From assembly GCA_965226795.1 (NCBI GenBank), contig CBDDDZ010000005.1, positions 1,504,001 to 1,568,000 on the forward strand: a stretch of 64,000 bases of DNA, written 5' to 3'. Shown here in pieces: positions 23,503-43,520 of this stretch. The stretch is from Candidatus Latescibacterota bacterium (GTDB lineage Bacteria > Latescibacterota > UBA2968 > GCA-2709665). A program made the translations under genes and the position numbers. The notes beneath the pieces were generated by a model that saw only the letters and a program-made list of their open reading frames with translations, ran no database searches and was not told the DNA's origin. The number at the start of each line of letters is the position of its first letter. Positions within the stretch are counted from its first letter, which is position 1.

Positions 23503-23556
23503 GATTCCGAAGCGTTCCGCCGCCGTAACGACCGGGATGTGAATGTCAGGAAACAC

Positions 23557-24894: not shown

Positions 24895-25075
24895 GGCTCG
24901 AACGCAAGCGTCTGGGCACCATGATGCCAGGACCGTCCATAGAGCGCTGACGAGTTTATCCGGCCCAGTGATGTCGGAGTACCAGCCGCTTTGTCGAGAC
25001 CCGGTTCCTGCATTTCGCGGCTGCGAAATGGAAATCAATAGGGCAGCTCCCTACACACAGTGAGAGAGTGCATCG

Positions 25076-26440: not shown

Positions 26441-27331
26441 ATGCGTATTACCGCGACGGGTTTAACGAAAATCTATCAAAAGGGGACCGCGCCTGCGCTG
26501 GACAACGTGGATCTGGAAATCGGACAGGTTACATTCGGGCTCCTGGGACCGAACGGTGCCGGAAAAACCACGCTCATCAAAATTCTTTCAACCCAAATGG
26601 CGCCAACAGCCGGCCAGGTAAGAATCGGTGCATGGGATCTGCAGCGCAACCGTTCCGAAGTGCGCCGGAGGTTGGGTTATCTTCCTCAGCACTTCGGGGC
26701 GTATCCGCAACTGACGGCGTGGGAGTTTCTGGATTATATGGACCGGCTCGCTGCCGGGCGCCGTCGGAGCGGGAGAAGGGCGCGGGTGCGGGATGCTTTG
26801 GATAACGTGGGGCTCTACGATGCGCGGAACCGTCGGACCGGCACGTTTTCCGGGGGAATGATGCGGCGGCTCGGCATTGCGCAGGCCATTGTGGGTGATC
26901 CTGCAATCCTGATTGTGGACGAGCCCACCGTGGGCCTCGATCCGGAAGAACGCATCCGTTTTCGGGGGATCCTCGCCCGGATGAGCCGGGATCGGGCTAT
27001 CTTGATTTCCACCCATATTGTTGGCGATATTTCGAGTACCTGCGATGATCTGGCCGTGCTGAATGCCGGACGGATCGTTTACAGGGGCTCGCCCGCGACG
27101 TTGGTTGCTCGCGCGAATGGCAAGACCTGGCGCGTACAGGCGGACGACGCCGGTTTCGAAAAGATCTCCAGAAGTTTTCTGGTTGTGACGGTCGCCGTGG
27201 ACGGTGGCCGGATGGATCTTCGGATCGTGGGCGATGGCCAACCACCCGGCAACGCGGAACCGGTTTCACCGAATCTCGAAGATGCGTATGTCTATTTTAT
27301 GGGTATGGAAAATCTGGAAAGGGCGGCGTGA
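26441..27331 (+). CDS. ABC transporter ATP-binding protein (ABC-2 type)
   Basis: GPNGAGKT, LPQ, FSGGM, IVDEPT, STH. Confidence 0.95.
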   Translation: MRITATGLTKIYQKGTAPALDNVDLEIGQVTFGLLGPNGAGKTTLIKILSTQMAPTAGQVRIGAWDLQRNRSEVRRRLGYLPQHFGAYPQLTAWEFLDYMDRLAAGRRRSGRRARVRDALDNVGLYDARNRRTGTFSGGMMRRLGIAQAIVGDPAILIVDEPTVGLDPEERIRFRGILARMSRDRAILISTHIVGDISSTCDDLAVLNAGRIVYRGSPATLVARANGKTWRVQADDAGFEKISRSFLVVTVAVDGGRMDLRIVGDGQPPGNAEPVSPNLEDAYVYFMGMENLERAA

Positions 27332-27343
27332 GTGGCATTGAAC

Positions 27344-30300
27344 ATGGATACGGCTTTCACCATATTTTCGGTCGCCAGATACGAACGCAAATTGCTGATG
27401 CGGACGATCAGATTTCGCATTCTGGGTGGTATTGGCGTGCTTATCCCCGTCGTTCTGGGGGTGGGACTGGCGATCGCGGAAGCCAGAGGCGTTGAATTCG
27501 AGTCTGTCAGCGGAATCGGCGCCTATATGCCCTTTTATGTCTACAGTTTCCTGCAGACCGTCGTGATCGCGTTTATTGTGGGGGATTTCCGCGCCGCGGA
27601 TGAGCGCGCCGGGATCTATGAGGTGGTTGCAGCCCGGCCGCTGTCAACGGCCGAATTGGTCATGGGCAAATACCTGGGTGTTCTGGGCGCACTGACCACA
27701 CTCAGCCTGGTTGTGCTCGTGCTCAGCCTGGGCGTACACGCAGCCAAAATCAGCATTACCGGCGCGCCGTTTACCATTCGGCCCTACCTTGCGTACTGGC
27801 TGCTGCTGAACCTGCCCGGGCTTGTTTACATGTCCGCGCTTACGTTTTTCCTTGGGGCGGTGTTGCGCCGACAGGCTGCAGTGACCGTGCTCGTTGTCGC
27901 GTATGTCGTGATTGTGCTCTTGTTCCTGGGGCGCAGATATGGCGGCATTTTCGATTTCGGCGCATTCTTCGCACCCGTGTTCTATTCGGATATGCTCGGT
28001 CTTGGCGATATCCGACGGGTGGTGGAGATCCGGTTCTTCTACATGATGCTTGCCCTGTTTTTCTTCGGTCTGTCAATCGACCGGTATCCGCGTCTGCCAC
28101 AATCACGCCCCTGGCGCAGGTTTGGCCGATGTCTGACCGCCGCCGGTCTCGTCGCCGCGCTGGCCCTGTACGTGTATATGGAAAGTCGGGACTCTGCCGA
28201 CCTCGAATACAGGATGGCGCAGTTGGAAATCCAGGAAAGATATGCCGATTGGCCTGCCGTGGAAGTTACGCATTACACGCTCGACCTGGATCTGGCAGCA
28301 GACCGGACACCCCTACGGGGCAGGGCGGTTCTGAACGTCTTGAACCCTCATCCCGTGCGGCTGGATACCCTCGTTTTCAGTCTCAACCCGGGATTGAAAT
28401 TGCGGTCTGTAAGCGCAAAGCAGGCAACGGACGTTGCTGTCAACTGGCGTCGCGAATACGCTACCGTGCAGGTCGCGCGACCACTTCAACCCGATAGTCT
28501 GGCGACACTCGTGTTTGTGTACGACGGATCGATTGACCTCAGCGGATTCGATCTCAGGCGACATCCTGATACAAGACGCTTGCAGAAGAGGCGCGCCGGG
28601 CCGGGGAGAAAGGGTGATCTTACCGCCTGGATTCGCCGCAATTCCGTTTTCCTGCCGCCACGCAGCAGGTGGTATCCCTCACCGGGCGTGGACTACGGGC
28701 ATCGGGATGGCAGACCCGTTTCCTTCGCCACTGCAGATCTCAATATTTCTCTTCCCGCCGGGCTGGAAGTTGTGACCCAGGGTGTACCGGTTAACCGGGA
28801 GCCAACGGGAAGACGTGAGATTCATACATGGAAAGTGGAGCGCCCTGTACCTGTTTTTTCACTCAACGCTGGCGTCTATCGTGTCTATCAGGCCGAAATC
28901 CACGACATCGAATGTGCTATCTACGTGCATCCGTCCCATGCAAAACAGGTCACCTTCTTCGAAGACGCCAGGGACGACGCCCTCAATACACTTGGCGAAA
29001 TTCTGGATAGTGTTGAACAGGAAACCAGCCTGGCCTACCCTTACGAGCGTCTATCTGTGGTGGAGGTGCCATTCCAGGTGCAATGGTATTACGACGGATG
29101 GGAGGAAGCAGGAGGATTGGTGCAGCCAGGTGTGCTGATGCTGGAAGAGGATGTCCTGATGCGGTTGAGGCTGGGACAGCGGCTGAAGTGGATGCAGCGA
29201 CGGCAACGGCAAAACGACGATCCTGCGAGAATCAAGCGCGATTTGCTGGTCAGCACGATCCTTAACACGTTTCTCGCGAGCGAATCGTCTCAGAGTGGGA
29301 TATACCGGAGTCCTGTTGCGCAACTCTGGTCGTTCAACAAAGGATTCGAAGGCGAACACTATTCGCTGTTAAAGCGCGGTATGCCAATCTATATGCAGAA
29401 ACATCTCGGTACCAATCTGCAACAGACGTTCTACTCGCGACGTGGGCGGTTTCGGGGGCGGTTCAGGCGCGACAGGGGCGGGAGTGGCGTCTCCTGGGAT
29501 ACGTTAACGGCCATGATGCGGCAGCGTTCCTTCGCGGAACTGGACCCGAATGCAGATGCGGAACTCTACCGGGCAGTCGTCGATGCCAAGGGCGCGTCCC
29601 TGTTCGGCATGATGCAGGCTGTGGTGGGAGACGATGCATTCAGAGATGTAATAAGCGGATTCGAGGAGGCGAATCGACACATCGGAGTCGACTTCGCTTC
29701 GTTTGAGAGGGCGGCTGTCGGCGATTCCTCGGGTGGGGTGAACGGACCCGACCTGAATCGCCTGGTCCGAGACTGGCTGCACAATACCCATGTGCCGGGG
29801 TACACACTGACACGGGCAAAAGCATATAAAGTCGACGACGGGTGGGGGATGATGACGTATCAGATCATCGTGCGGATCCGGAACGGGGAGCCCGGGCGCG
29901 GGTTCGTTCAGATTCGAGCGTTGGGCACCGAGGACGAGGCGGTAAAAGGAGTCGAGATAGAGGGCGGGCAGGAAGTCGAGGTGGGGTTGATCCTTTGGGA
30001 GCGGCCCTCTAGGATAAGTATCGAGCCTTTTTTTGCACGCAACCGCCGCATCCTGATGGCGCCGCTGCGCATACCCGAGCAGCCGATGGACGGATCCGCC
30101 ACGACTTACGTGAGGGAGGTTTCCCCGGATGAGACCGGATTGACCGAAATAATCGTGGACAACGATGACGAAGGCTTCGAGATGCCGGTCCGCAGGGTGC
30201 GCCGTTATCTTCGACCGCAGTTGAAGGGCGACAACTGGCAGGAACGCCAGTTGCCGTTTTCTTTCGGACGGTATGAGAACAATTTCCGTTGGAAGAAACC

Positions 30301-30718
30301 TGGCGACGGCGCGCAACCGGCCGTTTGGACCGCCCGTTTGCCCCACAGCGGGGATTACGACGTCTACTATTATTTCCTTTCTCCCAGGTTCTCGAAGCGT
30401 CTGCGTATGGCATCGGAATTCAATCTGGCCGTCTGCCACGGTGGCCAGGTGGATACGCTGACGGTGGAAGCACACGAACTGAAGGCGGGCTGGAACGTCC
30501 TGGGACGTTACCGGTTCGAGGGTGGGGAATTGGCCCGTGTCGAATTGTCCGACCGTGCCAACGGCCGGCTGTACGCCGACGCGGTGCGCTGGAGGTACGT
30601 AGACCCTGACCATCCGGAGGACGTATACGAAGAGGAACTTCCCACCTGGAACTTCGGCGGCGGCGGCCGCAGGGGTGACCGGGGAGGGCGTGGACAAAGC
30701 CGCGGAGGACGATGGTAA
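27344..30718 (+). CDS. ABC-2 permease fused to an M1-aminopeptidase-like ectodomain (no HExxH) and a golvesin-like C-terminal domain
   Basis: N-terminal TM helices 'ARPLS..LVMGKYLG'; M1-like 'YPYERLSVVEVP', 'KGASLF', 'DWL'; C-terminal 'IIVDNDDEGF..GDYDVY..GWNVLGRY.F..YADAVRW'. Confidence 0.75.
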   Translation: MDTAFTIFSVARYERKLLMRTIRFRILGGIGVLIPVVLGVGLAIAEARGVEFESVSGIGAYMPFYVYSFLQTVVIAFIVGDFRAADERAGIYEVVAARPLSTAELVMGKYLGVLGALTTLSLVVLVLSLGVHAAKISITGAPFTIRPYLAYWLLLNLPGLVYMSALTFFLGAVLRRQAAVTVLVVAYVVIVLLFLGRRYGGIFDFGAFFAPVFYSDMLGLGDIRRVVEIRFFYMMLALFFFGLSIDRYPRLPQSRPWRRFGRCLTAAGLVAALALYVYMESRDSADLEYRMAQLEIQERYADWPAVEVTHYTLDLDLAADRTPLRGRAVLNVLNPHPVRLDTLVFSLNPGLKLRSVSAKQATDVAVNWRREYATVQVARPLQPDSLATLVFVYDGSIDLSGFDLRRHPDTRRLQKRRAGPGRKGDLTAWIRRNSVFLPPRSRWYPSPGVDYGHRDGRPVSFATADLNISLPAGLEVVTQGVPVNREPTGRREIHTWKVERPVPVFSLNAGVYRVYQAEIHDIECAIYVHPSHAKQVTFFEDARDDALNTLGEILDSVEQETSLAYPYERLSVVEVPFQVQWYYDGWEEAGGLVQPGVLMLEEDVLMRLRLGQRLKWMQRRQRQNDDPARIKRDLLVSTILNTFLASESSQSGIYRSPVAQLWSFNKGFEGEHYSLLKRGMPIYMQKHLGTNLQQTFYSRRGRFRGRFRRDRGGSGVSWDTLTAMMRQRSFAELDPNADAELYRAVVDAKGASLFGMMQAVVGDDAFRDVISGFEEANRHIGVDFASFERAAVGDSSGGVNGPDLNRLVRDWLHNTHVPGYTLTRAKAYKVDDGWGMMTYQIIVRIRNGEPGRGFVQIRALGTEDEAVKGVEIEGGQEVEVGLILWERPSRISIEPFFARNRRILMAPLRIPEQPMDGSATTYVREVSPDETGLTEIIVDNDDEGFEMPVRRVRRYLRPQLKGDNWQERQLPFSFGRYENNFRWKKPGDGAQPAVWTARLPHSGDYDVYYYFLSPRFSKRLRMASEFNLAVCHGGQVDTLTVEAHELKAGWNVLGRYRFEGGELARVELSDRANGRLYADAVRWRYVDPDHPEDVYEEELPTWNFGGGGRRGDRGGRGQSRGGRW

Positions 30719-30762
30719 TTAATTGTGTAACAACGATATATATCCTTTTAGTGAGGTATATT

Positions 30763-31842
30763 TTGAATCGACGACGCTCTGAATTCTATATGCTATTCAT
30801 CGGTATTTCTACGCTATCAGGCTGCGGCGGGCAAACCGAACAGCGGACCGTCGATCTGACCGTCCCCGTTACGGTTCAGGCGGTGCGGCTGGACACCATG
30901 GAAGCGACGGTGGGGGCCACGGGGACGCTCCGGTCCTCTAAAGAGGCTCGAATTCAAACCGAGGTCGAAGGTATTCTTCGATTTGTCGCACGGGACGGCG
31001 GGGAAAGGCCGGCGGAGGGTATGCGGGTTACCCGAAACCAGGAAATCGCCCGTCTGGTGAACAGGGAACTTGAAGTGAATGCCCGCGTTGAATCCCGGGC
31101 GCTTGCTAAGTCCGCTGCGAAGCGAACGCTTCGTGAACAAGAGGTACTGGTTGAACGCAAGCTGGGTACGGAGAGAGATCTTGACGAAGCACGCCGCGCA
31201 CTTGCCGAGGCCGAATCAAATTATGAAGACGCCCTCGTTCAGATCGCCAAGACGACGATTCGTACACCAATCGCCGGCTTTCTAACAGGATTGGCCGACA
31301 TTACCGACGGTACACTCGTGGAAGCCCGTACGACCATTGCGACAGTGATGGATTACAGCCGCGTGCTCGTCGAACTCAAGATACCAAATGCCTATATTTC
31401 GTCGGTTTCGCCGGGGCAGATTGTGCGTATGGAGAACTATGCGTTGCCCAACCGACTGTTTAGGGGGACCATCAAGGTGGTGGATCCGGCCATTGATCCG
31501 ACGACACGTACGTTCCGGGTGGTGGGGGCCGTGAAGAATCCGGACCTGATGTTGCGGCCGGGAATGTTCGTGAAAGCGGAGATTGTCACGGAGTCACACG
31601 AAAACGTGGTGGTGATCCCGCGCCGCTTTGTGCTGACCCGTCAGAATCGCAAGGTGGTGTTCGTCGAAGAGGAGGGGAGGGCACAGATGCGCAACGTGGA
31701 ATTTGGGCTGGAGGGGTCGGAGCAGGTCGAGATTCTGGAAGGGCTTGAACCGGGCGAGCGCCTCATTACAAGCAACTATGAAACCCTGCGGCCGCGTACG
31801 CGCGTGCGGGTAACCGGCGAGGGAGTGCCGGGGCAGCGATGA
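30763..31842 (+). CDS. RND periplasmic adaptor (MFP) lipoprotein
   Basis: GAGGT RBS with TTG start; lipobox LSGC; IRTPIAG, IDPTTRTF, LRPGMF, GLEPGE. Confidence 0.9.
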   Translation: MNRRRSEFYMLFIGISTLSGCGGQTEQRTVDLTVPVTVQAVRLDTMEATVGATGTLRSSKEARIQTEVEGILRFVARDGGERPAEGMRVTRNQEIARLVNRELEVNARVESRALAKSAAKRTLREQEVLVERKLGTERDLDEARRALAEAESNYEDALVQIAKTTIRTPIAGFLTGLADITDGTLVEARTTIATVMDYSRVLVELKIPNAYISSVSPGQIVRMENYALPNRLFRGTIKVVDPAIDPTTRTFRVVGAVKNPDLMLRPGMFVKAEIVTESHENVVVIPRRFVLTRQNRKVVFVEEEGRAQMRNVEFGLEGSEQVEILEGLEPGERLITSNYETLRPRTRVRVTGEGVPGQR

Positions 31843-32035
31843 ACACATGGGGCGAGTGTCCGTTGTTCTAAGGACCCGTACCGACACGAAAGATCCCATC
31901 CGCGCGGAAGATCCGGATTCCATCGCCACAAATGCCCCTACTGCGCGTACCGCGATGGATTCAGCGACGGTTACAGGAAGGCGCAAGCGCAGCTGAGGGG
32001 CGCGTCACTCACATAATCACCCGAGCAAGTAGGCT

Positions 32036-32256
32036 ATGGCAACAGTTCAATACGATGTGCTGAAGTGCCTGCAAAAAGCAGCAAATGTCGAATCTCTGGC
32101 GATCCAAGAGGGCCCTTCGGTCAAAGAGATGGCCGACCTCCTCCATCTGGATACGGATCAGATCCGCGGCGCGATCGGGGGCTCCGGGCAAAAGGATATG
32201 ACATCCGAAACCATCCCCGGCGCAGCGGCCATTTTGTATTATTTGGCTATCCGTGA
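32036..32256 (+). pseudogene. small winged-HTH (BirA/HTH_11-like) protein, frameshifted at the G-run 32177-32181
   Basis: 'SVKEMADLLHLDTDQIRGAI' continues as 'LRAKGYDIRN..HFVL' in another frame; one added G joins them. Confidence 0.5.
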
Positions 32257-32642
32257 TCTCCGGATCCCAACTCAACGTGGATGCTGAACCAGGTGAAAGA
32301 CTGACCGCGAGCGTTGAGTTCTAAAGATTTCATTTCGCCCGCTGCCAGGTCGACACGAGGGGTGGGCCCGAGTTCGACGCCGTTCGACAGATGGATCTCA
32401 ACCCGGACCTGGGAGACTTTGGCGTTTGTGGTATTCCTGACCGTGCCGGCGAACACCTTACGGTCACTGTCATATCTGGCGACCAGTTCGACGCCGCTGC
32501 GAACCTCTTTGGCGGTCTCTGAGATATTATACCTCTTGCCTGATTCGCCCGCCTCGGCGGGTTCCGTAGGACCTGCCGAACATGCACCAACTGCAACGAC
32601 GAACACTGCCACAGCATAACAGCAAAAAGCCTGAATCGACAT
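32247..32642 (-). CDS. small lipoprotein with an Ig-like (FxLYD-like) domain
   Basis: AGGAGGAAGGAG RBS; hydrophobic signal ending VGAC; 'GTVRNTT..VRVEIHL..LAAGE'. Confidence 0.7.
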   Translation of the reverse strand: MSIQAFCCYAVAVFVVAVGACSAGPTEPAEAGESGKRYNISETAKEVRSGVELVARYDSDRKVFAGTVRNTTNAKVSQVRVEIHLSNGVELGPTPRVDLAAGEMKSLELNARGQSFTWFSIHVELGSGDHG

Positions 32643-32767
32643 CTGAAACTCCTTCCTCCTTACGTTTGAGATAACTGCGCAGATTCACACATTCTCAACG
32701 TCCCTGACGGTCAAAGGTTGCCGCCTTTTAGCTTAATTGATAGTTCCCCTTTCAAAGGGCTGATACG

Positions 32768-35700
32768 ATGTCTTTGCCCGAATTCTCAACAAAATACCCG
32801 GTGACGGTTGCCATGGCCACACTGGCGGTAGCGCTCCTGGGTTGGATCTCACTGGAACGGCTGGACGTAGACCTGTTGCCCGACCTGCATTCTCCCGTGA
32901 TTACGGTCGACCTGCGTTTTCCGGGCAAGACTCCAAGGGAGATGGAAGAGCGTTATGCGCAGCGTCTCGAAGGGGATATCGGTACCGTTCGCCACGTCAA
33001 ACGGGTACATTCAGTGTCCCGCTCCGGTCAAGCCGTGGTGATCGCGGAATTTGAATGGGATGCGGATATGGATTTCGCCTTGCTCGACGTGCAAAAGAAA
33101 GTGGGGCGGTACGCAGCGGATCCCGATATCACGAGTCTGGACGTTACGCAGGAAGACCCTCAGGCGCTGCCGGTGATGCGCCTGGCCGTGTCCGGAGCGG
33201 ATTGGCAGGATCCGGACGAACTGCTGGGCAGTGTGGAAACGATAATCAGGCCGAAACTTGAAGGGTTCTCCGGGGTGGCTTCAGTAGAAATCGAAGGAGG
33301 GGCGGAAAAGGAGATCCATGTTACGCTGGATTCCTATCTTCTGCAAGCCTTTGGCGTCAATTCCGAGACGGTCGTCTCGCGAATTCGGGAGGCGAATTCG
33401 GATGTCTCCGGAGGGACGTTGAAGGACGGGCAACGATCCTATCTGGTCAAGGGTATGGGACGTCTGAACGATTTGAAGGACGTGAACAACCTGGTTGTCG
33501 GTGAGAGCAGAGGCGGAACCGCGAACGGCCAGGAAGATGCACCGGCCGAGCGGGTGCCCGTCATGGTTGGCGATGTGGGTACCGTGGCACTCCGATATAA
33601 GGAGAGGGAGACAATCGTGCGCCTAGACGGTGTGGAGTGCGTCGGTCTTTCAATCTATAAAGAAGCGGGCGCGAATACTTCGTCGGTGGTCAACGGGGTT
33701 CTTCAAGAACTGGGAAGTCTGGAGGCCGACCTGGCGGGCATTCGCTTTACAGTGGTGGAGAACCAGGCGCGCTTTGTGGAAAGCGCGGTAAACGAAGTGG
33801 AAGAGGCGGCCATTCTCGGCGCGTTGCTGGCCGTGGGCGTGCTGTTGGCTGTGCTCCGGCAGTGGACAGCCACACTGGTGATCGGTCTTGCCATTCCGAT
33901 TTCCGTGCTGGCCACCTTCACGCTGATGTATTTCCAGGGGTTGACGTTGAATGTGATGACCCTGGGCGGGTTGGCGCTGGGCGCCGGCATGTTGGTTGAC
34001 AACGCGATTGTCGTGATCGAAAACATCTACCGGCACCTGGAACGGGGAGAAACAGCCGCCGAAGCCTCCGTTAAAGGTGCGAGCGAGGTCGGGGTCGCCA
34101 TTCTGGCTTCCACGCTCACTACGGTGTCGGTGTTTCTGCCGATCGTCTATCTTCATGGGCTGGCCGGCGAACTCTTCAAGGAGCAGGCTTGGACGGTAGC
34201 GTTTTCGCTGATTTCGTCTCTTGTGGTGGCCATGACCATCGTCCCGATGTTGACCGCCCGGCTCTTTGGCCGGTATCGTCGCCGATCCGCGAGAGTCGCC
34301 GGGTCGGTCGCGTTCAACCGCTTTCTGAGTGGATCACTCAACTACAAGGGCCGTACGATGGCAGTGCTTTTCGCGTGTCTTCTGGCCGCCTTCTACATGG
34401 CCCGGTCCATCCATACTTCCTTTATCCCCAGGGAAGACGAGGGTGTACTTCACGTGGACCTCGCGTTGCCGGAGGGCACAAGGCTCGAGTCAACGGACAG
34501 GGTGGCGAGACGCGTTGCCGCAATCACACAGGCAGTCGCCGGACAGGAAGCCCGGCACATCTACCTTCGCGTGGGAAACGATCCTAACCGGCTGACGGCA
34601 GTGGGAGAACCCACCGGCCCGAACAGGGCGGAGTTGACGGTGGTGCTGACGCAGCGAACGGACCGGCGCAGTGTCTCCGAACTCACCGCCGCGCTGGATA
34701 CCGCCATTCGCGAGGTGCCGGATATTAAGGCTAACTATCGACTTCAAAAGGCTGCATTAGAAGGAATTATCCGAGGAAATGCTGCGCCGGTTCAGGTCGA
34801 GGTCAGCGGAGAGAACCTGGAATTACTCCGGGAACTGACGGCAGATCTGAAACGGCGCATGGAAGCGTTACCCACAGTGTATAACGTGCGAACCAGCTTC
34901 CAGGATGGTCAGCCCGAAGTGGACGTGGTGTTGCGGCCGGATATCACGGCGGCGTTTGGCCTTACCTCACAGAACCTCGTGCGCGAACTCGAGCGCAGGC
35001 TGGCAGGCGAGGAAGCCGGGGAACTCTCCAAAGACCAGCGTGCGCGAACCATCCGGGTGCGTTTCGAAGATGTGGATTTTCGCGAGTTGAAACACACCAG
35101 AATTGACGGCCCCGACGGGGCAATGCTCACGCTGGGAGATCTCGCCGACTTGAGGGTGGTCCAGGGGCCGCGGGAGATATTGCGCGACGGGCAGCGTCGG
35201 GTGGGCAGGGTATCCGCTTATCTGACCGAAGGTGTGGTGCTGGGCCAGGCGGCAACGCAGATCAGACAGGCGGTGGGACAGATGGCCATTCCACACGGAT
35301 ATCGGGTGACCGTTACAGGCGAGGAACGGGAACGGGCCGAGTCATTTGGCGGCCTTCAATTCGCCCTCATACTGTCGGTTGTGCTCGTCTATATGGTAAT
35401 GGCATCGCTTTTCGAGTCCTTGCTCCATCCGTTTACGGTAATGCTTTCGGTGCCGCTGGCCGGCATTGGCGTGGTGTTCGCATTCTGGAGCCTTGGAGAG
35501 GCGTTTGGCATTATGGCATTTATCGGGGTGATCATGCTGGGCGGAATCGCCGTGAACGACGCCATCATTCTGGTGGATCGCATCAACCAGTTGCGGCACG
35601 ATACGGGCGACTTGAGACAGGCGGTTCTTCAGGGGGCACAGGATAGGCTGCGGCCGATCCTGATGACCAGCGCCACAACCATCCTTGCACTGTTGCCCAT

Positions 35701-35851
35701 GGCGGTGGGGGTCGGCGAGGGCGCCCGTTTACGGGCACCGATGGCTGTGGCGGTTATCGGCGGGTTGGTGACCTCCACACTGATGACTCTGGTGGTGATT
35801 CCCGTCGTTTACGAATTGATCGAACGGCTTAGAATCAGGAGGGCGTCGTGA
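32768..35851 (+). CDS. AcrB/AcrD/AcrF-family RND permease
   Basis: PVTV..LLP, GMLVDNAIVVIENI, FESLLHP, RLRPILMT. Confidence 0.95.
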   Translation: MSLPEFSTKYPVTVAMATLAVALLGWISLERLDVDLLPDLHSPVITVDLRFPGKTPREMEERYAQRLEGDIGTVRHVKRVHSVSRSGQAVVIAEFEWDADMDFALLDVQKKVGRYAADPDITSLDVTQEDPQALPVMRLAVSGADWQDPDELLGSVETIIRPKLEGFSGVASVEIEGGAEKEIHVTLDSYLLQAFGVNSETVVSRIREANSDVSGGTLKDGQRSYLVKGMGRLNDLKDVNNLVVGESRGGTANGQEDAPAERVPVMVGDVGTVALRYKERETIVRLDGVECVGLSIYKEAGANTSSVVNGVLQELGSLEADLAGIRFTVVENQARFVESAVNEVEEAAILGALLAVGVLLAVLRQWTATLVIGLAIPISVLATFTLMYFQGLTLNVMTLGGLALGAGMLVDNAIVVIENIYRHLERGETAAEASVKGASEVGVAILASTLTTVSVFLPIVYLHGLAGELFKEQAWTVAFSLISSLVVAMTIVPMLTARLFGRYRRRSARVAGSVAFNRFLSGSLNYKGRTMAVLFACLLAAFYMARSIHTSFIPREDEGVLHVDLALPEGTRLESTDRVARRVAAITQAVAGQEARHIYLRVGNDPNRLTAVGEPTGPNRAELTVVLTQRTDRRSVSELTAALDTAIREVPDIKANYRLQKAALEGIIRGNAAPVQVEVSGENLELLRELTADLKRRMEALPTVYNVRTSFQDGQPEVDVVLRPDITAAFGLTSQNLVRELERRLAGEEAGELSKDQRARTIRVRFEDVDFRELKHTRIDGPDGAMLTLGDLADLRVVQGPREILRDGQRRVGRVSAYLTEGVVLGQAATQIRQAVGQMAIPHGYRVTVTGEERERAESFGGLQFALILSVVLVYMVMASLFESLLHPFTVMLSVPLAGIGVVFAFWSLGEAFGIMAFIGVIMLGGIAVNDAIILVDRINQLRHDTGDLRQAVLQGAQDRLRPILMTSATTILALLPMAVGVGEGARLRAPMAVAVIGGLVTSTLMTLVVIPVVYELIERLRIRRAS

Positions 35852-38800
35852 TTCTCCCCGACCTTGCGGTCAGGCGGCCGGTGACGACGTCCATGTTCTT
35901 CGCTGCATTCGCCATATTGGGCGTCGTGTCGTGGACCCGGCTTCCGGTACAGCTCTTTCCGGAGCTGATTTTCCCGGAAGTTTTCGTCACACTCTCGCTG
36001 CAGGGTGCCTCTCCGGAACAGATCGAAAGGGATCTGGTAATTCCCGCCGAAGGGGAGATCGGCAAGCTGGACGGGGTCCAGGAGATGGAGTCATTCGCTA
36101 TGGCCAATAGGGGTGGTATCAGAATAGCCTATGCTCCGGACGTGGATATGAAATTCGCCCTGCTTCAGCTACAAAGCAACCTGAACAGATTGCAGCCAAC
36201 GCTGCCCGAACGTACGCAAACCGATGTACGAAGATTCGATTCGGCAGATCTGAGCAGCAGCATCATGGAACTCCACGTGCTTGCCGATTGGGATCTGAAC
36301 CAGCTCCGGGAGTTCACGGAGGAAAACATCCGCCCCGAATTGGAGTCTGTCGACGGTGTTGTGGATGTATCGGTTATGGGTGGGCGGCGCAGCGCCGTGG
36401 AAATCGTTCTGGATCCGTTTCTGCTGGAAGCGCACGGCCTTTCGACCGGAGAGGTACGAGGACGCCTGAATAGTTATAATCAGCGACGGGAGTATCTGGG
36501 CCGCGTATACGACGGGAATCGGGCCTACTCGGTGAGCATTCAGGGACAGTTTACGGACCTGCGACAGATTCGGAATCTGGTGTTAAACGCGGAGGGCACA
36601 CTCCGACTGGGCGACGTTTCGCGGGTGGGATACGGACTTCAGGAACAGGCCGACCGCCACCGAGTCAATGGCAAACCTTCGGTGGGGGTGCGAATCCAGA
36701 AGGACGACGAAGCGAACCTGATCGAAGTGGCCACCGCGGTAGAAGCGGCCATTGGACAGCTGAATCGCAATTTCAAGAGCGACGGCGTGGAACTGGGCGT
36801 GAGTTCGTCTCAGGCGGATCTGATGACCGGGGCGCTTTCGACCCTGAAACAGGCGGCCATAATTGGTGCTGTCCTCGGCATGATCGTGCTCTTTCTGTTT
36901 CTTCGGAACCTTCGTTTTGTCTCGGTCCTCCTGCTCGCCATTCCGGTTTCTCTCCTGATGACCTTCAATCTGATGTACCTGGGAGGGTTATCCGTCAACG
37001 TGCTGTCTCTTTGCGGCCTGGCCCTCGCAATGGGAATGCTTGCGGACAACGGCATTGTGGTGATGGAGAATATCTTCAAGCATTACGAGCGTGGAAAATC
37101 GCCCGCCCAGGCGGCGCGGGACGGGGCGGCCGAGGTTGGTCGTGCGGTGGTCGCGGCAACCGCAACCACGGTAACGGCTTTCTTGCCCGTTCTATTTATC
37201 GAAAGCGACGCGCGGGATCTGCTGCGTGAGCTCGCATTGTCCATGGCGTTTCCGCTAATGGCCTCACTGCTGGTAGCGCTGACGCTCGTTCCTGCCCTTG
37301 CCGTCCGGGCGTTGAGCCGCGAGGTCCGACAACCGCCTGACGTCCGCGGCTTGCTGGAACAGTATACACTACTGTTGAAGGCCGCTCTACGGCATCGCGC
37401 ATCGGTTGCCCTGACCGTAGGGTGCGCCCTCGTGCTGACACTCGTCGTGGCCTTCTTCTATCTGCTCCAGCAACAGGTGCGGAGAGAGGAGACGCGATTT
37501 ACGGTTTACGTGAACCTGCCGGACGGGGCCACGCTGGATGCCACCGACGAGGTCGTGAAGCAGGTGGAAGAATCTGTGCGGGACGTGCCCGGCCTGGATC
37601 GGTTTACGACGTCGGTGCAGGAGGCCGAAGCCAATGTTACTGTCCTGTTGAGAAAGCGTTCTGACCGGCCCGGCGACATCTCGCTGGATGAAATAAAGGA
37701 ACAACTCGACGAAAAAATGCAGAACGTGCAGGGAGGTGTGGTAGGATACGAACCCAGGCCTCGGGCGGGAAGGGGCGGGCGCGGGCAGGGGATAGGACAG
37801 CGTCGGAGGCGCAGCTCCGGCGGATTCGATCTGACAGGGGCAACGCCGAACGAGCAGGCCGTGGTTCGAGGTTACGATTTTACGATACTGACGATGATTG
37901 CCAACGACTTGGTGTACCGCCTTGAGGAACTCGAAGAGGTGGATGCCAACAGCGTACGCGCTGACGCCGAACGGAGTTCGCCTGAGGTTCAGGTGATTCC
38001 CGATGCGGCGTCCCTGTTCGACCGGCGGCTTGGGGCGAGGGAGGTCCTGGCCGCCCTGGGAGACACGCGTTGGGACGGATTCCGCTCCACCGTACCGTTT
38101 CTGCTGCCCGACGCAACCGAGATACCTATCGAAGTGCGGACGTTTGAAGAGGAGGACCGGGACCGTTACGGGCTGGCTGAATTAAAACGCTCCCGTGTTC
38201 TCAACCAGGACGGTCAGTACGTGTCTCTGGACGAAGTTGCGCGGGTTCGAACGGACGAGGGCAGGAGCAGCCTGTTGAGGACCGACCAGGCCCGCCGGAT
38301 CGTGGTTTCCTACCGGTTTCCGTCGGAAATTCTGGATTCACAACCGCGGTTGGATATTGCGAGACGGGTCGTGAGGACGACACTGCAGGATATGGTGCTG
38401 CCGGAGGGCTATTCGATTGAAAACATTGAGGCGCACGAGGAGACGATTTACTATTGGATGATCGGAATTGCCGCGGTGCTCATCTACATGATTCTGGCCT
38501 CGCTGTTTGAATCTTTCGCCTCTCCGATAATCATTCTATGTACGCTGCCGCCTGCGGCCATCGGCTCGTGTTGGGCGCTGATGATGTCGGGCACGGGCCT
38601 GAGCCAGCAGGAAGGGCCCATGGCGCTGCTGGGCTTTGTTGTCCTTTTGGGTATTGCCGTGAATAACGGGATTATCCTGATAGATGCGGTCGGCGTGCTC
38701 AGGTCCCGATTCGGATTTCGCCGGGAACGCGCAGTTTTGACGGCGGCAAGGTCCCGTGTGCGACCCATATTGATGACGACGGCCACAACGCTTCTGGGTG

Positions 38801-40560
38801 TTCTTCCGCTCGCGCTGGAATTCGGTGGTGATTTCGAAATCTGGCCGCCGTTCGCAATTACCGTTCTCGGTGGATTGTCTGTTTCCATGGTGTCCACATT
38901 GATCCTGATTCCGGTGGTTTACATGGGGCTGGATCAGATCGGAACATGGCTGGCTGACCTGGGCATTGTCGGCGTCGTGCTCTCCCTGCTGGCTACCGTA
39001 GCGGCTGGCTATGGTGTATATACCCGGTATGAAAGTGTTTTCTGGGCCGCGCTGTCGATATTGCCCATCTGGGGCGGGTTCTTGACTGCGGTGTGGATCG
39101 TACTGAAGGTCCATCGCGCTCGGGTCGCCGTCCGCCGCGCGTCGAGCGCCGTATTTTCCATTCAGCTGAGGAACCTGACCAAAATCTACGGCGCATCCGG
39201 GAGTTTTGGCCGGGAATGGGCGCGCAACGAACGTCGGAAAGGGCGGTTGATGAAAACAGGGCTGGATCCGCAGGACCGCAAGCCGGTTCGTGATGCGCTC
39301 TTATGGAAGCTGCCGTTGCTCGCACTGCTGATGTTTTTCACGACCTATTTCGAGGACGAAATCTGGATCTATCTGCACGGATTGGCACTGGCATTTATGC
39401 TTGGCCACATGGGTCGATGTTTCGGCGACCTCTGGCGGGAACATCTGTCGTCGCCGGCCGAACGTATCGGAGAAATTCTGTACAAAGTCGTTTTGCCACT
39501 GGGATTTATGGCTTATGTGCACTTGCAGCTGAATTTGCTTTCCGTCACCATTGCTACTTTCGGCTTGTGGGCCGCCTATCGACTGGCACGATGGCTCGCC
39601 GACAGGGTGCGAGCGGGCGTGGTAACCCCCGATGAACTATTCGGACGTTTTGTACGGGCGCGTAGATGGTTTTATCGGATGGCATCGGCCATACCCCTCG
39701 TCGGTGTTCCCCAGCCTGAATTTCGGGCGCTGGCGGGCGTCAACCTGGAAATCGGCAGAGGAATGTTCGGTCTTCTGGGACCCAATGGCGCCGGTAAGAC
39801 CACGTTGATGCGTATTCTTTGTCGGGTCCTCGAGCCCAGCTACGGGTCGATCCTTTTCGACGGTCGAAACATCCTGCGGAAAGGTTCGATCCACGGCCTG
39901 ATCGGGTATCTTCCGCAGCACTTCGGCAACTACGGACACCTCTCCGCGCACGAATTCCTGGAATACCGGGCGCTGCTCGAAGGCTTTAAGGACCGTAAGA
40001 CTCGCGAGTCACGGGTGATCGAATCCCTGGAACAGGTAAATCTGATCGAACGCATGGAAGATCCCATCGGGTCGTTCTCAGGGGGAATGAAGCAGCGCCT
40101 TGGTATCGCGCAGACCCTGCTGCACACCCCGCAAGTCGTGGTTGTGGATGAGCCCACAGCAGGGCTCGATCCACTGGAGCGTATCCGGTTTCGTAATCTG
40201 CTCGCCCGGTTGAGCCAGGATCGGATCGTCATTTTCTCCACGCACATCGTGGAAGATATCTCTGGAAGCTGCAATCGACTGGCGGTACTGGATCAGGGGC
40301 GTCTTCTTTATACCGGAACGCCGGGGGAGATGAGAAATCAGGCGGAGGGACGGGTGTGGGATGCGATGGTTTCGGAACAGCGCTTTTCCGAGTTGGAAGA
40401 AAAACTGAAGCTCGTATCGCACCAGCGGACGTCAGACGGGGTCAAAATGCGATTCCTGTCTGAACGTCCACCGGTTGGGTTCGGCGCACAAAGCGTGGAT
40501 CCAACCCTGGAAGACGCGTATCTGTACCTACTCGGTGCAGGAAAGGACAAGACGTGCTGA
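35848..40560 (+). CDS. AcrB-family RND permease fused to extra TM helices and a C-terminal ABC ATPase
   Basis: RND motifs GMLADNGIVVMENI and RVRPILMT, then GPNGAGKT, LPQ, FSGGMKQR, VVDEPT and STH in one 1570-aa frame. Confidence 0.92.
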   Translation: MILPDLAVRRPVTTSMFFAAFAILGVVSWTRLPVQLFPELIFPEVFVTLSLQGASPEQIERDLVIPAEGEIGKLDGVQEMESFAMANRGGIRIAYAPDVDMKFALLQLQSNLNRLQPTLPERTQTDVRRFDSADLSSSIMELHVLADWDLNQLREFTEENIRPELESVDGVVDVSVMGGRRSAVEIVLDPFLLEAHGLSTGEVRGRLNSYNQRREYLGRVYDGNRAYSVSIQGQFTDLRQIRNLVLNAEGTLRLGDVSRVGYGLQEQADRHRVNGKPSVGVRIQKDDEANLIEVATAVEAAIGQLNRNFKSDGVELGVSSSQADLMTGALSTLKQAAIIGAVLGMIVLFLFLRNLRFVSVLLLAIPVSLLMTFNLMYLGGLSVNVLSLCGLALAMGMLADNGIVVMENIFKHYERGKSPAQAARDGAAEVGRAVVAATATTVTAFLPVLFIESDARDLLRELALSMAFPLMASLLVALTLVPALAVRALSREVRQPPDVRGLLEQYTLLLKAALRHRASVALTVGCALVLTLVVAFFYLLQQQVRREETRFTVYVNLPDGATLDATDEVVKQVEESVRDVPGLDRFTTSVQEAEANVTVLLRKRSDRPGDISLDEIKEQLDEKMQNVQGGVVGYEPRPRAGRGGRGQGIGQRRRRSSGGFDLTGATPNEQAVVRGYDFTILTMIANDLVYRLEELEEVDANSVRADAERSSPEVQVIPDAASLFDRRLGAREVLAALGDTRWDGFRSTVPFLLPDATEIPIEVRTFEEEDRDRYGLAELKRSRVLNQDGQYVSLDEVARVRTDEGRSSLLRTDQARRIVVSYRFPSEILDSQPRLDIARRVVRTTLQDMVLPEGYSIENIEAHEETIYYWMIGIAAVLIYMILASLFESFASPIIILCTLPPAAIGSCWALMMSGTGLSQQEGPMALLGFVVLLGIAVNNGIILIDAVGVLRSRFGFRRERAVLTAARSRVRPILMTTATTLLGVLPLALEFGGDFEIWPPFAITVLGGLSVSMVSTLILIPVVYMGLDQIGTWLADLGIVGVVLSLLATVAAGYGVYTRYESVFWAALSILPIWGGFLTAVWIVLKVHRARVAVRRASSAVFSIQLRNLTKIYGASGSFGREWARNERRKGRLMKTGLDPQDRKPVRDALLWKLPLLALLMFFTTYFEDEIWIYLHGLALAFMLGHMGRCFGDLWREHLSSPAERIGEILYKVVLPLGFMAYVHLQLNLLSVTIATFGLWAAYRLARWLADRVRAGVVTPDELFGRFVRARRWFYRMASAIPLVGVPQPEFRALAGVNLEIGRGMFGLLGPNGAGKTTLMRILCRVLEPSYGSILFDGRNILRKGSIHGLIGYLPQHFGNYGHLSAHEFLEYRALLEGFKDRKTRESRVIESLEQVNLIERMEDPIGSFSGGMKQRLGIAQTLLHTPQVVVVDEPTAGLDPLERIRFRNLLARLSQDRIVIFSTHIVEDISGSCNRLAVLDQGRLLYTGTPGEMRNQAEGRVWDAMVSEQRFSELEEKLKLVSHQRTSDGVKMRFLSERPPVGFGAQSVDPTLEDAYLYLLGAGKDKTC

Positions 40561-41276
40561 ACTGGCGGGAATTGCTGCTGGCCACGTGGCGGCTCTATCG
40601 GCTTAGCTGCAGGATCATATTTCATAGGAAATTGATGTTCATGGCCATTGGCGTTTTTGCATATTACGCAGCCATGTATGCATTTGCAGTCTGGCGCCCC
40701 GACGAAGGATTCGGCGTATCGCGGGCGCTCAATGTTCTGGTTGAAATTCCTGGTATCGCACTGGCCATTTATCTGACGATGGATCTCGTTGCAGCCGAAC
40801 GAGATAGAAATACACTGGAGACGTTGTTCAGTACAGCCTCATCCCACTATAAGATATGGGCGATCCGGATGGTCGGGGTTTATGTGGTGTTGGCGGGAAC
40901 CCTGATGGGAATGACGGTTGTCGCCTATTTTGTTTTCGCGGAATTGCCGGTCTTCAGGGGTGGGCTGAATGCCATTCTGCCGGCGTGTTTTGCCGCAGGC
41001 CTCACTTTTTATTTTTCCGTTCTCTGTCGAAGCGGAAATGCGGCCGCGATGCTCGCTACGGGAGTGATGGGCCTGACTCTGTTCATCTCGGAATCCATGC
41101 CCGACTCACCCTTCGCGCTTTTTCTGAGTACGTTTGATCCCCCGGTGGGAATGGAAGACACCCTGTGGGGCGACCAGGTGCTTCTGAATCGCCTGGCTGT
41201 ACTATTGCTGTCGGGCCTGCTGCTTTTTATGGGCCTCCGCAAGATGGAAGCCAGGGAGCGATTGGTATCTTCGTAG
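40554..41276 (+). CDS. ABC-2 type permease
   Basis: About 6 TM segments; 'ERDRNTLETLFS' loop; overlaps the stop codon of the upstream gene. Confidence 0.75.
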   Translation: MLNWRELLLATWRLYRLSCRIIFHRKLMFMAIGVFAYYAAMYAFAVWRPDEGFGVSRALNVLVEIPGIALAIYLTMDLVAAERDRNTLETLFSTASSHYKIWAIRMVGVYVVLAGTLMGMTVVAYFVFAELPVFRGGLNAILPACFAAGLTFYFSVLCRSGNAAAMLATGVMGLTLFISESMPDSPFALFLSTFDPPVGMEDTLWGDQVLLNRLAVLLLSGLLLFMGLRKMEARERLVSS

Positions 41277-42524: not shown

Positions 42525-42839
42525 ATCCGTAGGTTTCCCGGCTGCCGGATTCAGTTGTTGGAGGGGGCGAGCGTGCCCAACGATGCGGGTATGCCTGCAG
42601 ACCCGAAATATGGGCAATCTTTCACATTTCGTCAAGACCGCACCGGATCATCCCCGCCGGGCCGGTGAACGCCGATCGGGGTCCCGGGCGGCCGGATTAA
42701 AGACCCTCTAGGGCGGTTCCGCGGATCTCGTCTTTCGTTTGGCCAGTCCTGGGAAAATGCCTATATTTAATATCATTCAGGGACAACCGTAAATGGACAT
42801 CTGTTTATCTGACGCTGTTTTTGGACGGAGGAGAGCGAT

Positions 42840-43520
42840 ATGCAGGGTACGCGGGGACGATTGACCAGGCGGGAACTCAGGCAGGACGAGTTTGTGAACA
42901 GGATACTGGCTGCATGGGCTTATGTGGAGGAGAACTATATCCGGGTGCTTGCCGCTGGAGGAGGGGTGATGGTCCTTGTCCTGCTTGGTGTGTTTGTAAT
43001 GAACAGGATGGACGCCCAGGCCAGAGAGGCGGTGGAAGCGGAGGGGCGGGTCCGGGTATTGTTGCTCCAGGGGCAGGTTGACGATGCCATTATGGAAGCG
43101 GAACGCATAGCGGAAGCCTATAGCGGCGATGCAGCGGCGGGCCGGGCGCTTCAGCTGGCAGGCGGCCTTTATTTCGAAACGGGGCGCCACGCGGAGGCAC
43201 AGGCTGCATTTGAAAAATACCTGCAGGAGTTCAATGCAACGGGTCCCACGGGGTACAGCGCCTGGTCCGGTGTGGCCGCGGCGATGGAAGAACAGGGCGA
43301 TCCCGCAGGTTCGGCAGCCAGATACCAGGCGTTCGCCGATGAGTTCAAAGACTCGCCGTTTGCGCCCAATGCGCTCAAGGAGGCGGCCCGCTGTTATAGA
43401 GTTTCGGGAGACACCGATCAGGCCAGGATTCTGCTGCAGCGCATTCTGGACAAGTACTCCAAGAGCCCGGTTGTGCGGAGCGCAGAGGAGGAACTCGAGG
43501 AGATGGGTGGCATCGGATGA
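42840..43520 (+). CDS. membrane-anchored TPR protein (YfgM-like)
   Basis: 'LTRRELRQDEF', a single TM and TPR-like helices; GGAGGAG RBS. Confidence 0.8.
   Translation: MQGTRGRLTRRELRQDEFVNRILAAWAYVEENYIRVLAAGGGVMVLVLLGVFVMNRMDAQAREAVEAEGRVRVLLLQGQVDDAIMEAERIAEAYSGDAAAGRALQLAGGLYFETGRHAEAQAAFEKYLQEFNATGPTGYSAWSGVAAAMEEQGDPAGSAARYQAFADEFKDSPFAPNALKEAARCYRVSGDTDQARILLQRILDKYSKSPVVRSAEEELEEMGGIG

Follow-up and report, generated by a model that had tools for sequence, protein, structure and literature searches.

An RND permease-ABC ATPase fusion within a conserved six-gene cluster: a candidate combined ABC-RND exporter

Background

ABC and RND exporters are regarded as alternative engines on the same adaptor-TolC duct. 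RND pumps draw their cargo from the periplasm or the outer leaflet, and the step before that has to be carried out by other transporters. In the case of the mycobacterial lipid PDIM, one locus encodes an ABC-2 heterodimer (DrrABC) and a protein of the RND superfamily (MmpL7), both of which are needed for the export of this one lipid. DrrABC and MmpL7 differ from the cluster described here in that they are unfused, in that MmpL7 is not an HAE1-type RND, and in having no known adaptor, TolC, or pseudo-peptidase.

Among the HAE1-type RND pumps, MdtABC-TolC of Escherichia coli contains an MdtBC heterotrimer of B2C composition, according to the accessible parts of the sources (PMC4338810, PMC8277102). 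The YbhFSR-YbhG system is described in the accessible parts of PMC8277102 and PMC13739795 as having, equally to the present cluster, two different permease subunits and an adaptor, whereas it has no RND subunit and its ATPases are fused to each other and not to a pump. A fusion of an ABC-2 permease with an M1 peptidase is represented by the Myxococcus protein Q1D520 (TC 3.A.1.145; 1200 aa, 13 TM; accessible part of PMC3924187). In WzmWzt, the connection between strands beta1 and beta2 of the ATPase is a membrane gate helix, which moves by about 8 Å upon ATP binding (accessible part of PMC6379404). No description of an RND-ABC fusion was found in the open-access literature, TCDB lying outside that search, and the accessible part of PMC1810536 yielded no passage on DrrABC/MmpL7.

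Organization of the locus

The window, i.e., the whole stretch of DNA analysed, comprises 64,000 nucleotides from a Candidatus Latescibacterota bacterium. At 26441..41276 the first-pass annotation had placed six co-oriented genes, all of which were confirmed as ORFs of the plus strand and are here called A to F (Table 1). The earlier count of two ATPases, two ABC-2 permeases, and two RND subunits stands, domains having been called with Pfam and NCBIfam profiles. The genes adjoin or overlap as described, with the exception of C and D, which are 925 bp apart. The 131-aa ORF within this spacer found no match in 183 fetched loci or elsewhere in the same genome; it is a local insertion outside the system. 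A promoter and terminator scan returned 7 and 13 sites, the same level as in shuffled sequence. Contigs of RNA libraries span the cluster (30/30 bins in X1 and X2, 29 in X5) at a depth close to that of the flanks; such contigs cannot demonstrate transcription, and X10 may represent the source DNA.

Table 1. Features of the cluster (positions within the window)
Feature	Position	Strand	Details or basis
A: free ABC ATPase (DrrA/NosF-like)	26441-27331	+	296 aa; BT_0295 orthologue; PF00005 8e-31
B: ABC-2 permease with periplasmic ectodomain	27332-30718	+	1128 aa
B ectodomain, first part: M1 aminopeptidase domains I-III, HExxH/E zinc ligands missing	28229..30046	+	model and profiles
B ectodomain, second part: beta-sandwich of the Golvesin_C / xanthan-lyase C-terminal type	30233..30589	+	PF25275 3.6e-15; 6f2p 940-1039, E 6.4e-12
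C: periplasmic adaptor (MFP), predicted lipoprotein	30712-31842	+	376 aa; TIGR01730
Lipoprotein-like 131-aa ORF in C-D spacer	32247..32642	-	weak FxLYD match below cut-off
D: RND permease 1 (12 TM)	32768-35851	+	1027 aa; BT_0299 orthologue; PF00873 7e-226
E: RND permease 2-ABC ATPase fusion	35848-40560	+	1570 aa; 18 predicted TM; BT_0300+BT_0301 orthologue
E TM13-14: two extra predicted helices between RND TM12 and ATPase	38956..39105	+	hydropathy of alignment, loop charge bias, model helices
E ATPase first beta-strand, ending in A-loop Tyr1114	39157..39189	+	superposition on LptB; motif search
E beta1-beta2 insertion, about 175 aa	39190..39717	+	basic helix, four predicted membrane helices, basic amphipathic helices
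E ATPase remainder: Walker A, Q-loop, signature, Walker B, D-loop, H-loop intact	39718..40560	+	
F: second ABC-2 permease (about 6 TM)	40554-41276	+	240 aa; BT_0302 orthologue

Conservation and gene order

The six-gene set, whose conservation had been named as a check, proved to be kept as a unit, rearranged loci included. B-C-D-E-F is held by all 20 chosen loci and A adjoins in 18 of them; each of the two other genomes carries an A-like gene elsewhere. Bacteroidales and further lineages share the order A-B-(TolC)-C-D-E-F. Among the rearranged loci, L001 reads C-A-F-D-B-E, and L111 and L119 are divergent; the operon is split or inverted in L086, L087, L111, and L119. In 168 genomes of the phylum, for which the lists of E linker and F were matched by hand and among which related genomes are not independent, the E linker was found in 82 and F in 81, both in 79 and neither in 84. 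In the Bacteroidota sample, the E linker and B occur in the same 4 of 401 genomes. Among 34 metagenome loci, namely those with at least 8.5 kb 3' of B (about half of them gut Bacteroidales and many near-identical), 31 show TolC-C-D-E and 2 show C-D-E-F, the remaining one being divergent. A contig scan with the full E alignment retrieved mostly ordinary ABC ATPases and RNDs, 2 of 80 loci (L001, L003) holding the system. Among the loci with examined flanks, the neighbouring genes differed from locus to locus and gave no clue to a substrate.

Concerning the outer-membrane channel, the earlier observation that a TolC-like gene is missing from the window was borne out: six genes for outer-membrane factors exist in the same genome, none of them in the window. 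TolC is part of the operon at 12 of the 20 loci, lying between B and C in 8 and after F in 4 (PF02321 was confirmed for the TolC genes of L089 and L170). It is thus usually found within the operon and absent from it in the source clade. One outer-membrane factor of the genome (C5:487927-489366), which adjoins another RND, is 46-49% identical to the type situated after F.

The fusion protein E

A single open reading frame encodes both the ACR_tran (residues 5-1027) and the ABC_tran (1297-1438) domain of E. Both PF00873 and PF00005, for which a joint search had been proposed, are present in all 120 E homologues listed, and the region from the end of the RND part to the ATPase is free of internal stops in 36 of 40 related genomes (one is interrupted by a contig end), so that an assembly artefact or read-through is ruled out as the source of the fusion. 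Among 149 cluster representatives, those longer than 1500 aa all measure 1550-1597 aa.

While the fusion itself stands as first described, the two parts are not plainly joined end to end, as two additional predicted helices stand before the ATPase and a further four are contained within it. These four membrane helices are predicted to follow directly after the adenine-stacking Tyr1114, and the ATPase is predicted to be cytoplasmic, the topology having been derived from alignment hydropathy and loop charge bias. Residues 108-503 of the E model superpose on LptB 2-227 with 220 aligned positions and an rmsd of 2.0. The A-loop Tyr motif is found in 117 of 126 alignment rows, and its spacing to Walker A amounts to 197 aa in E versus 24 in A. 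The blocks of the insert reach a pLDDT of 85-97 in a larger model. A profile of insert and linker gave only chance matches in the PDB (E 3 or above), the ESM Atlas returned only short generic ABC fragments, and no free ATPase bearing the insert was found, the 6 shorter matches being mostly fragment-like. It is unusual for an ABC ATPase to carry a membrane domain at its A-loop.

In WzmWzt/TarGH, as far as the accessible part of PMC6379404 goes, a basic element likewise lies between beta1 and beta2, next to the adenine-stacking Tyr and at the membrane face; that gate is one short helix, whereas the insert of E has about 175 aa and four predicted membrane helices and is found on only one of the two ATPases. 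The E model also places a helix between beta1 and beta2, and the likeness to the gate helix appears to be one of position only. Sequence relatives of the Wzt/TarH type are not among the best matches listed for E or for the linker profile.

All 126 E rows contain Walker A, LPQ, and STH as well as [FYL]SGGM, and Walker A, signature, Walker B, and H-loop are present in each of the 20 A ORFs examined. A quick tree assigns the A and E ATPases to the same subfamily, in which they form mirror subtrees. Among the matches listed, the solved ATPases closest to E are those of TM1403, NosF, and the ABCA types. The cluster has the parts of an ABC-2 (type V) exporter: each of its two ATPases possesses Walker A/B, Q-loop, signature, D- and H-loops, and there are two ABC-2 membrane domains, that of B being recognized weakly and that of F through its family. 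When E 1033-1510 was modelled in complex with F and B 1-262, without controls, the scores were 0.22 and 0.26 (mark 0.32), a result that counts neither way.

Permeases B and F and adaptor C

B has 7 predicted TM at about residues 26-283, and its AlphaFold2 model attains a pLDDT of 86.0 and a pTM of 0.84. Its permease part matches PF12698 (ABC2_membrane_3) at 1.9e-5, under the cut-off; further profile matches are to Golvesin_C and, weakly, Peptidase_M1. The ectodomain of about 850 aa noticed earlier is retained, and is now read as a zinc-less M1-aminopeptidase fold plus Golvesin_C. Residues 302-904 of the model align with ERAP1 (Z 23.2, rmsd 4.4, 472 aligned), profile matches of this part are to M1 enzymes, and the Golvesin_C beta-sandwich occupies the place of the helical domain IV of M1. 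The HExxH-x18-E zinc site of active M1 aminopeptidases is absent: HELAH pairs with RDLLV and the Glu of the third ligand with Arg (hhalign 98.6%), and among B homologues HExxH was found in 1 of 120 and 0 of 59, the sole instance at an unrelated position. The domain has lost the zinc site and is predicted to have no peptidase activity, and since this site is lacking, the peptide processing considered in the first-pass annotation is unlikely in the enzymatic sense. A supposed Glu-to-Gln change in the GAMEN motif, which might have hinted at N-blocked ligands, was discarded, as GGMEN falls on GWEEA in the hhalign alignment and the Glu varies among lineages.

F itself has no Pfam or NCBIfam match; 12 of 22 of its orthologues match ABC2_membrane_2 (PF12679), and both permeases retain conserved motifs. 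Compared with TC 3.A.1.145, as described in the accessible part of PMC3924187, B equally joins an ABC-2 membrane domain to a C-terminal M1 fold, and F together with B (about 6 TM plus 7 TM and M1) would reproduce the 13-TM plan. The cluster differs from that family, which has 13 TM in a single chain and a zinc-dependent peptidase, in that the permease is spread over two genes (B having 7 TM and no HExxH), in the missing zinc site, in the added Golvesin_C, and in the tie to an RND pump.

C matches the RND adaptor profile TIGR01730 with 187 bits (cut-off 94.9), and a lipobox-like motif occurs, under a loose pattern, in 53 of 59 C ORFs.

RND subunits D and E

Both RND subunits are full-length with 12 TM and two periplasmic loops, PF00873 covering residues 5-1018 in D, which has 12 hydrophobic segments. 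The closest solved relative of D is MdtB (9lyq, E 4e-103). Like the cluster, MdtABC-TolC has one adaptor and two RND paralogues, and it works with an outer-membrane factor, as the cluster would, whereas MdtB and MdtC lack an ATPase and ABC genes are missing, according to the accessible parts of PMC4338810 and PMC8277102. The polar residues differ as well, MdtB having DD in TM4 and KN in TM10, D having DN and ND. Of the AcrB/MdtB-type relay, the first Asp, the Arg, and the Thr are kept in D and E (D411 of TM4, R960, and T967 in D), while Asn replaces the second Asp and the Lys. Of the alignment rows, 127 of 132 for E and 20 of 23 for D show DN in TM4, N[ND] in TM10, and R,T; stand-alone RNDs likewise have DN/NN/RT most often (8/20), a control that rules out decay of one RND subunit. 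Since many stand-alone RNDs of the clade share the altered relay, it excludes membership in the AcrB subfamily but not proton coupling; as D and E lack the second Asp and the Lys of the AcrB type, this coupling is assumed by analogy with their relatives.

The orthologous cluster of Bacteroides thetaiotaomicron

The orthologue of the cluster in B. thetaiotaomicron is BT_0295–0302, E being divided into BT_0300 and BT_0301 in the annotation of the type strain. Best matches in the Bacteroidales sample are at 67-71%. Annotations in Bacteroides are misleading, B being called 'xanthan lyase' and 'NatA' also being used within the cluster. A is transcribed from a separate start site, with a predicted terminator behind the gene, and the RNA baseMean of A is 422 versus 11-71 for the downstream genes. 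Bile raised C (log2 2.8, padj 0.009) but not A (log2 -0.5, not significant), so the parts of the cluster are not strictly co-regulated. The earlier statement that no functional study exists holds for the whole cluster, but not for its RND part: BT0297-0300 was deleted as an ordinary RND pump, and bile-dependent biofilm persisted (PMC11078008). In the RB-TnSeq paper PMC8121099, cluster genes are unnamed in the text and supplements examined.

Mode of action

A physical tether of the ABC and RND parts through E is very probable. Two ATPases and two ABC-2 permeases fit one heterodimeric ABC transporter, the second ATPase of which is borne by an RND subunit; to this extent the tethering proposed in the first-pass annotation is supported, the hand-over of cargo being less probable. 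With an RND subunit fused to an ABC ATPase and the rest of an ABC transporter alongside, pump types that are normally separate likely constitute one export machine.

The reading we tentatively prefer, at somewhat less than even confidence, is that the cluster encodes a single exporter working in two stages: ATP would power the first, from which an amphiphilic cargo would pass to an RND–TolC pump driven by protons. The ABC transporter would be composed of the ATPases A and E (terminal domain) and the permeases B and F, and the RND pump of D and E, which would use the proton gradient together with adaptor C and a TolC channel. D and E would form a mixed trimer; with the composition D2E, each trimer would bear a single ABC unit, and the retention of two RND genes would be accounted for. 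The ABC unit may lift an amphiphilic, peptide-like or lipid-linked cargo from the cytoplasmic leaflet, while the inserted E helices would form an enlarged gate, shifting when ATP binds; the dead peptidase cavity of B would retain the cargo in the periplasm, and the RND pump would receive it from there and expel it via C and TolC. Points that weigh against this reading are the lack of a substrate clue in the examined flanks, the positional nature of the gate-helix likeness, the closeness of the E ATPase to NosF, the altered RND relay, the incomplete co-regulation in B. thetaiotaomicron, and the persistence of bile-dependent biofilm after deletion of BT0297-0300. That both energy currencies are coupled, ATP binding moving the insert helices, loading the cargo, and timing the RND stroke, with the dead aminopeptidase as hand-over chamber, seems rather doubtful.

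Alternatively, the ABC unit might move no cargo, B sensing a periplasmic ligand (e.g., a peptide) and the ATP cycle switching on or helping the RND pump by a signal that travels through the inserted helices and TM13-14. The ABC system of NosF, which is among the closest solved ATPases in the matches listed, acts as a motor and is not known as a translocator; the insert begins right after the adenine-stacking Tyr, two membrane helices would provide a direct mechanical path from beta1 to RND TM12, and the ligand-binding-like domain of B lies on the periplasmic side, as expected of a sensor. We nevertheless consider such a regulatory role unlikely, as the cluster keeps two complete permeases whose motifs are conserved and the polar residues of the RND subunits are the same as in stand-alone RNDs, giving no sign of ATP replacing protons. 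Improbable, in our estimate, is that the RND pump and the ABC unit, the latter being a relative of TC 3.A.1.145 that is split and without catalytic activity, serve different molecules, the fusion merely fixing stoichiometry or location. The partly separate transcription of A in B. thetaiotaomicron, the split or inverted operons, and the stand-alone ABC-2::M1 fusion of Myxococcus (accessible part of PMC3924187) would suit this division of labour; however, B or F without E was met in 2 genomes only (F only in both, the single-protein E query possibly missing divergent copies), and the six-helix linker with its invariant residues exceeds the needs of a tether. Very improbable is an RND trimer driven directly by the E ATPase paired with A, with B and F as accessories, to which the covalent RND-ATPase link and the common subfamily of the A and E ATPases would conform, but not the two co-inherited ABC-2 permeases, for which the cluster has no other ATPase, nor the permease-contacting Q-loop, invariant in E (126/126).

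Conclusions

Judged by the open-access literature, the novelty of the cluster is in the combination, its component families being already known. This conserved ABC-RND cluster reaches the gut bacterium Bacteroides thetaiotaomicron, and its presence in a culturable organism makes the system testable now. A covalent ABC-RND unit, if true, would unite both steps of export in one machine, and their hand-over would be visible in one structure.

Organization of the gene cluster

Family scans place A among the ABC ATPases and C among the RND adaptors; D scores as a complete RND permease, and E as a second one that continues in frame into an ABC ATPase, so that the fusion reported in the first-pass annotation is borne out. 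At its N-terminal start, B (an ABC-2 permease with an ectodomain) exhibits a weak ABC-2 match, and ABC2_membrane_2 is matched in 12 of 22 orthologues of F, the second ABC-2 permease. Among named homologues, the nearest carry the label Latescibacterota or Gemmatimonadota. The genes had been described as six co-oriented, mostly abutting ones; this holds at the junctions A-B, B-C, D-E and E-F, which abut or overlap, except that C and D are separated by a spacer of 925 bp with an ORF on the opposite strand. The C-D gap measures -26 to 318 bp in 21 related loci, and the spacer ORF was found in none of 183 fetched loci. Beside this ORF, 162 bp of the spacer (32047-32208) are missing in a related strain (sequencing runs X1/X2).

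Features of the window and of one divergent locus
Feature	Position	Strand	Remarks
Dimethylformamidase-beta-like, homocysteine S-methyltransferase, TPP enzyme, FAD oxidoreductase, RidA-like	19337-26323	+	co-oriented, upstream of cluster
Six-gene cluster A-F	26441-41276	+	ORF calls
131-aa lipoprotein-like ORF, C-D spacer	32247-32642	-	weak FxLYD match
Diadenylate cyclase CdaA, weak YbbR-like C-terminal match in same ORF	41382-42635	-	family scans
1180-aa protein, C-terminal FG-GAP/PQQ propeller, N-terminal 800 residues without assignment	43517-47059	+	family scan
Two overlapping ORFs in different frames	47679-48762	-	transposase-like in two pieces by eye
Divergent E, 1437 aa	L001:10001-14314		rearranged operon; RND polar residues altered (DS/NS)

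Concerning the neighbouring genes, those upstream possibly serve methylamine or betaine catabolism and lie beside the operon in close kin only; the propeller protein comes after a TPR protein. No recurring substrate clue was found among neighbours in the loci whose flanks were read.

The RND-ABC fusion protein

The fusion is genuine and ancient. A homologue search with residues 1030-1330 of E, Walker A included, gave 937 matches among 8000 scored candidates, and the proposed check for proteins carrying both PF00873 and PF00005 found the two in all of the best 120 of these 937. Named sources include Latescibacterota, Gemmatimonadota, Acidobacteriota, KSB1, Calditrichota and Fidelibacterota, and the region is free of stops in 36 of 40 related genomes. 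A linker profile retrieves 149 clusters at 50% identity, of which those above 1500 aa all measure 1550-1597 aa. A search for shorter linker proteins returned six matches, situated on short contigs or showing signs of frameshift, and one representative of 526 aa falls into a cluster with a protein of 1567 aa; in this search and among the clusters inspected, which took in a minority of the shorter ones, a free form of the insert-bearing ATPase was not found.

After TM12 of the RND part, E continues with two hydrophobic helices and a short strand ending K-I-Y1114, then with around 175 residues containing four hydrophobic helices, and finally with the remaining ATPase, such that the distance from the tyrosine to Walker A is 197 residues, as against 24 in the free ATPase A. 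In an AlphaFold2 model of E 996-1570 (126 sequences, pLDDT 92.4, pTM 0.80), model residues 108-503 superpose on LptB (chain 2-227; 220 aligned, rmsd 2.0, Z 26.7), and other listed ATPases likewise start at 105-110. Since the superposition starts at around 108, the strand before the insert is taken to belong to the ATPase as its first strand, and from this model the four helices are predicted to be an insertion within the beta1-beta2 loop of the ATPase. The long loops of E carry 4-10 Lys/Arg on the predicted inside and 0-1 on the predicted outside, which fits the topology and thus predicts a cytoplasmic ATPase. Its catalytic motifs are kept in all 126 rows, save spelling variants of Walker B and the D-loop. 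In the divergent E of locus L001, the insert at the same position is around 45 aa long and lacks membrane helices. In WzmWzt, a gate helix occupies the beta1-beta2 loop at the membrane; it packs on the permease and shifts about 8 A upon ATP binding (PMC6379404). The likeness to E concerns the position of the insert only, and no sequence match was found among the listed hits of the linker profile.

The ectodomain of B

The model of B (93 sequences, pLDDT 86.0) exhibits seven membrane helices, domains I-III of an M1 aminopeptidase (match to ERAP1: Z 23.2, rmsd 4.4, 472 aligned) and lastly a Golvesin_C sandwich. As judged from sequence, the zinc motif has been lost: of the homologues of B, 1 of 120 in one set and 0 of 59 in another carry HExxH, the single case at an unrelated position, and HELAH of an intact M1 protein aligns to RDLLV. 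Among catalogued protein types, TC 3.A.1.145 comes nearest, a 13-TM ABC-2 domain joined to a zinc-dependent M1 peptidase (PMC3924187); B and F together would resemble a split, dead version of it. At L157:1-11228, three B-type permease-pseudopeptidase genes surround a single A gene, B being multiplied perhaps for different ligands.

Conservation and gene order

The cluster genes travel together. Of 168 genomes of the window's phylum, 82 contain the E linker and 81 contain F; 79 have both, 84 have neither and five have just one of them, the three with E alone being fragmented and 84-86% complete. In a Bacteroidota sample (n = 401), the E linker and B occur in the same four genomes, a figure limited by the query, because a closer query gave 54 positives out of 401 in an order-level Bacteroidales sample. 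The supposed conservation of the six-gene set is supported by the 20 genomes that were fetched out of the 82 positive ones in the phylum, picked for diversity and long contigs: B-C-D-E-F is present in all 20 (D in two pieces in one, L092), with A in front in 18. TolC lies between B and C in eight and an outer-membrane factor after F in four; none was found nearby in the remaining eight. Of 79 metagenome loci, 34 have 8.5 kb or more of sequence past B (31 TolC-C-D-E, 2 C-D-E-F, 1 divergent), and A lies in front of B in 40 of the 43 with room; many gut loci are near-identical and not independent. Rearranged loci retain member genes (C-A-F-D-B-E in L001; E-D-C back to back with A-B in L111/L119), and the ATPases of A and E form mirror subtrees (quick tree, 72 rows).

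The genome of the window contains six outer-membrane-factor genes, one of which, 46-49% identical to the after-F type of loci L089-L092, is by sequence the best candidate partner of the cluster. An RND permease of 1333 aa, around 300 residues longer than usual (G000:C5:489782-493783), is situated between an adaptor and this candidate gene.

Counterpart in Bacteroides thetaiotaomicron

Protein names assign the gut loci L159/L170 to Bacteroides thetaiotaomicron or B. faecis, and L182 to Parabacteroides. Upstream of A, L170 agrees in 51/51 bases with the sequence at the start site of BT_0295 (ABC ATPase, 894 nt), and the sequence at an internal BT_0301 start site agrees with the E insert in 50/51 (PMC7366714); the cluster therefore corresponds to BT_0295-BT_0302. 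VPI-5482 is annotated with the ATPase end of E as a gene of its own (BT_0301, 1512 nt), and the interval between the BT_0295 and BT_0301 landmarks departs from that in L170 by a length not divisible by three; thus E is probably interrupted in this reference, through mutation or sequencing error. The locus tag BT_RS01475 is absent from one RNA-seq table, and E of L170 runs in one frame through Walker A.

Lopes et al. count BT0297-0300 as one of seven RND clusters induced by bile. Their deletions included this cluster, and of the deleted clusters only the loss of BT3337-3339 removed biofilm (PMC11078008). In the bile data of that study, BT0298 is the only gene of BT0297-0300 to pass padj 0.05, and BT0300 is assigned a value equal to that in the BT0302 row. 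Furthermore, BT0299 is down 2.9-fold with iron depletion (PMC10434189), and a mouse-gut screen in E. coli showed early selection of BT_0297 (PMC4380924). The accessible text of these B. thetaiotaomicron papers mentions neither the fusion nor the ABC genes as part of a pump. An integrase-YjbH-YjbH-lipoprotein locus (L170:1477-8826; BT0290-0294 by gene order) has the operon 269 bp downstream; BT0292-94 are phase-variable and up under phage pressure (bioRxiv 10.1101/521070).

Possible mode of action

A description of an RND-ABC fusion was not found in the open-access literature searched; DrrABC/MmpL7 constitutes an analogue of the pairing of ABC and RND. The simplest reading is a physical ABC-RND unit, given that two ATPases plus two ABC-2 permeases amount to a single transporter, of which one ATPase is joined covalently to an RND subunit. 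If D and E assembled like MdtB2C (PMC4338810), the resulting D2E trimer would accommodate a single ABC unit.

We tentatively favour a relay, in which the ABC unit, the dead peptidase cavity and the RND-adaptor-TolC part act in turn on one cargo. It is conceivable, if less probable, that the ABC unit is a sensor-motor instead. Against tight coupling speaks that A in B. thetaiotaomicron possesses its own start site and a predicted terminator and is not co-induced by bile. Separate jobs of the ABC and RND parts are considered rather unlikely. Concerning the polar residues of the RND subunits, D has D411-N412 in TM4, N930-D931 in TM10, R960 and T967, and the pattern DN/NN/RT is found in E in 121 of 132 rows, and in 8 of 20 stand-alone RNDs (from the window's genome and from loci partly chosen on the DN pattern). 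In this comparison, some rows of which were shortened by a length limit, there was no sign of decay relative to stand-alone RNDs; proton coupling of the D/E pump is assumed from relatives. An RND part driven directly by ATP appears very improbable. In the favoured relay, the ABC unit would carry an amphiphilic cargo over the inner membrane, the dead peptidase cavity of B would keep it, and the RND-adaptor-TolC part would throw it out.
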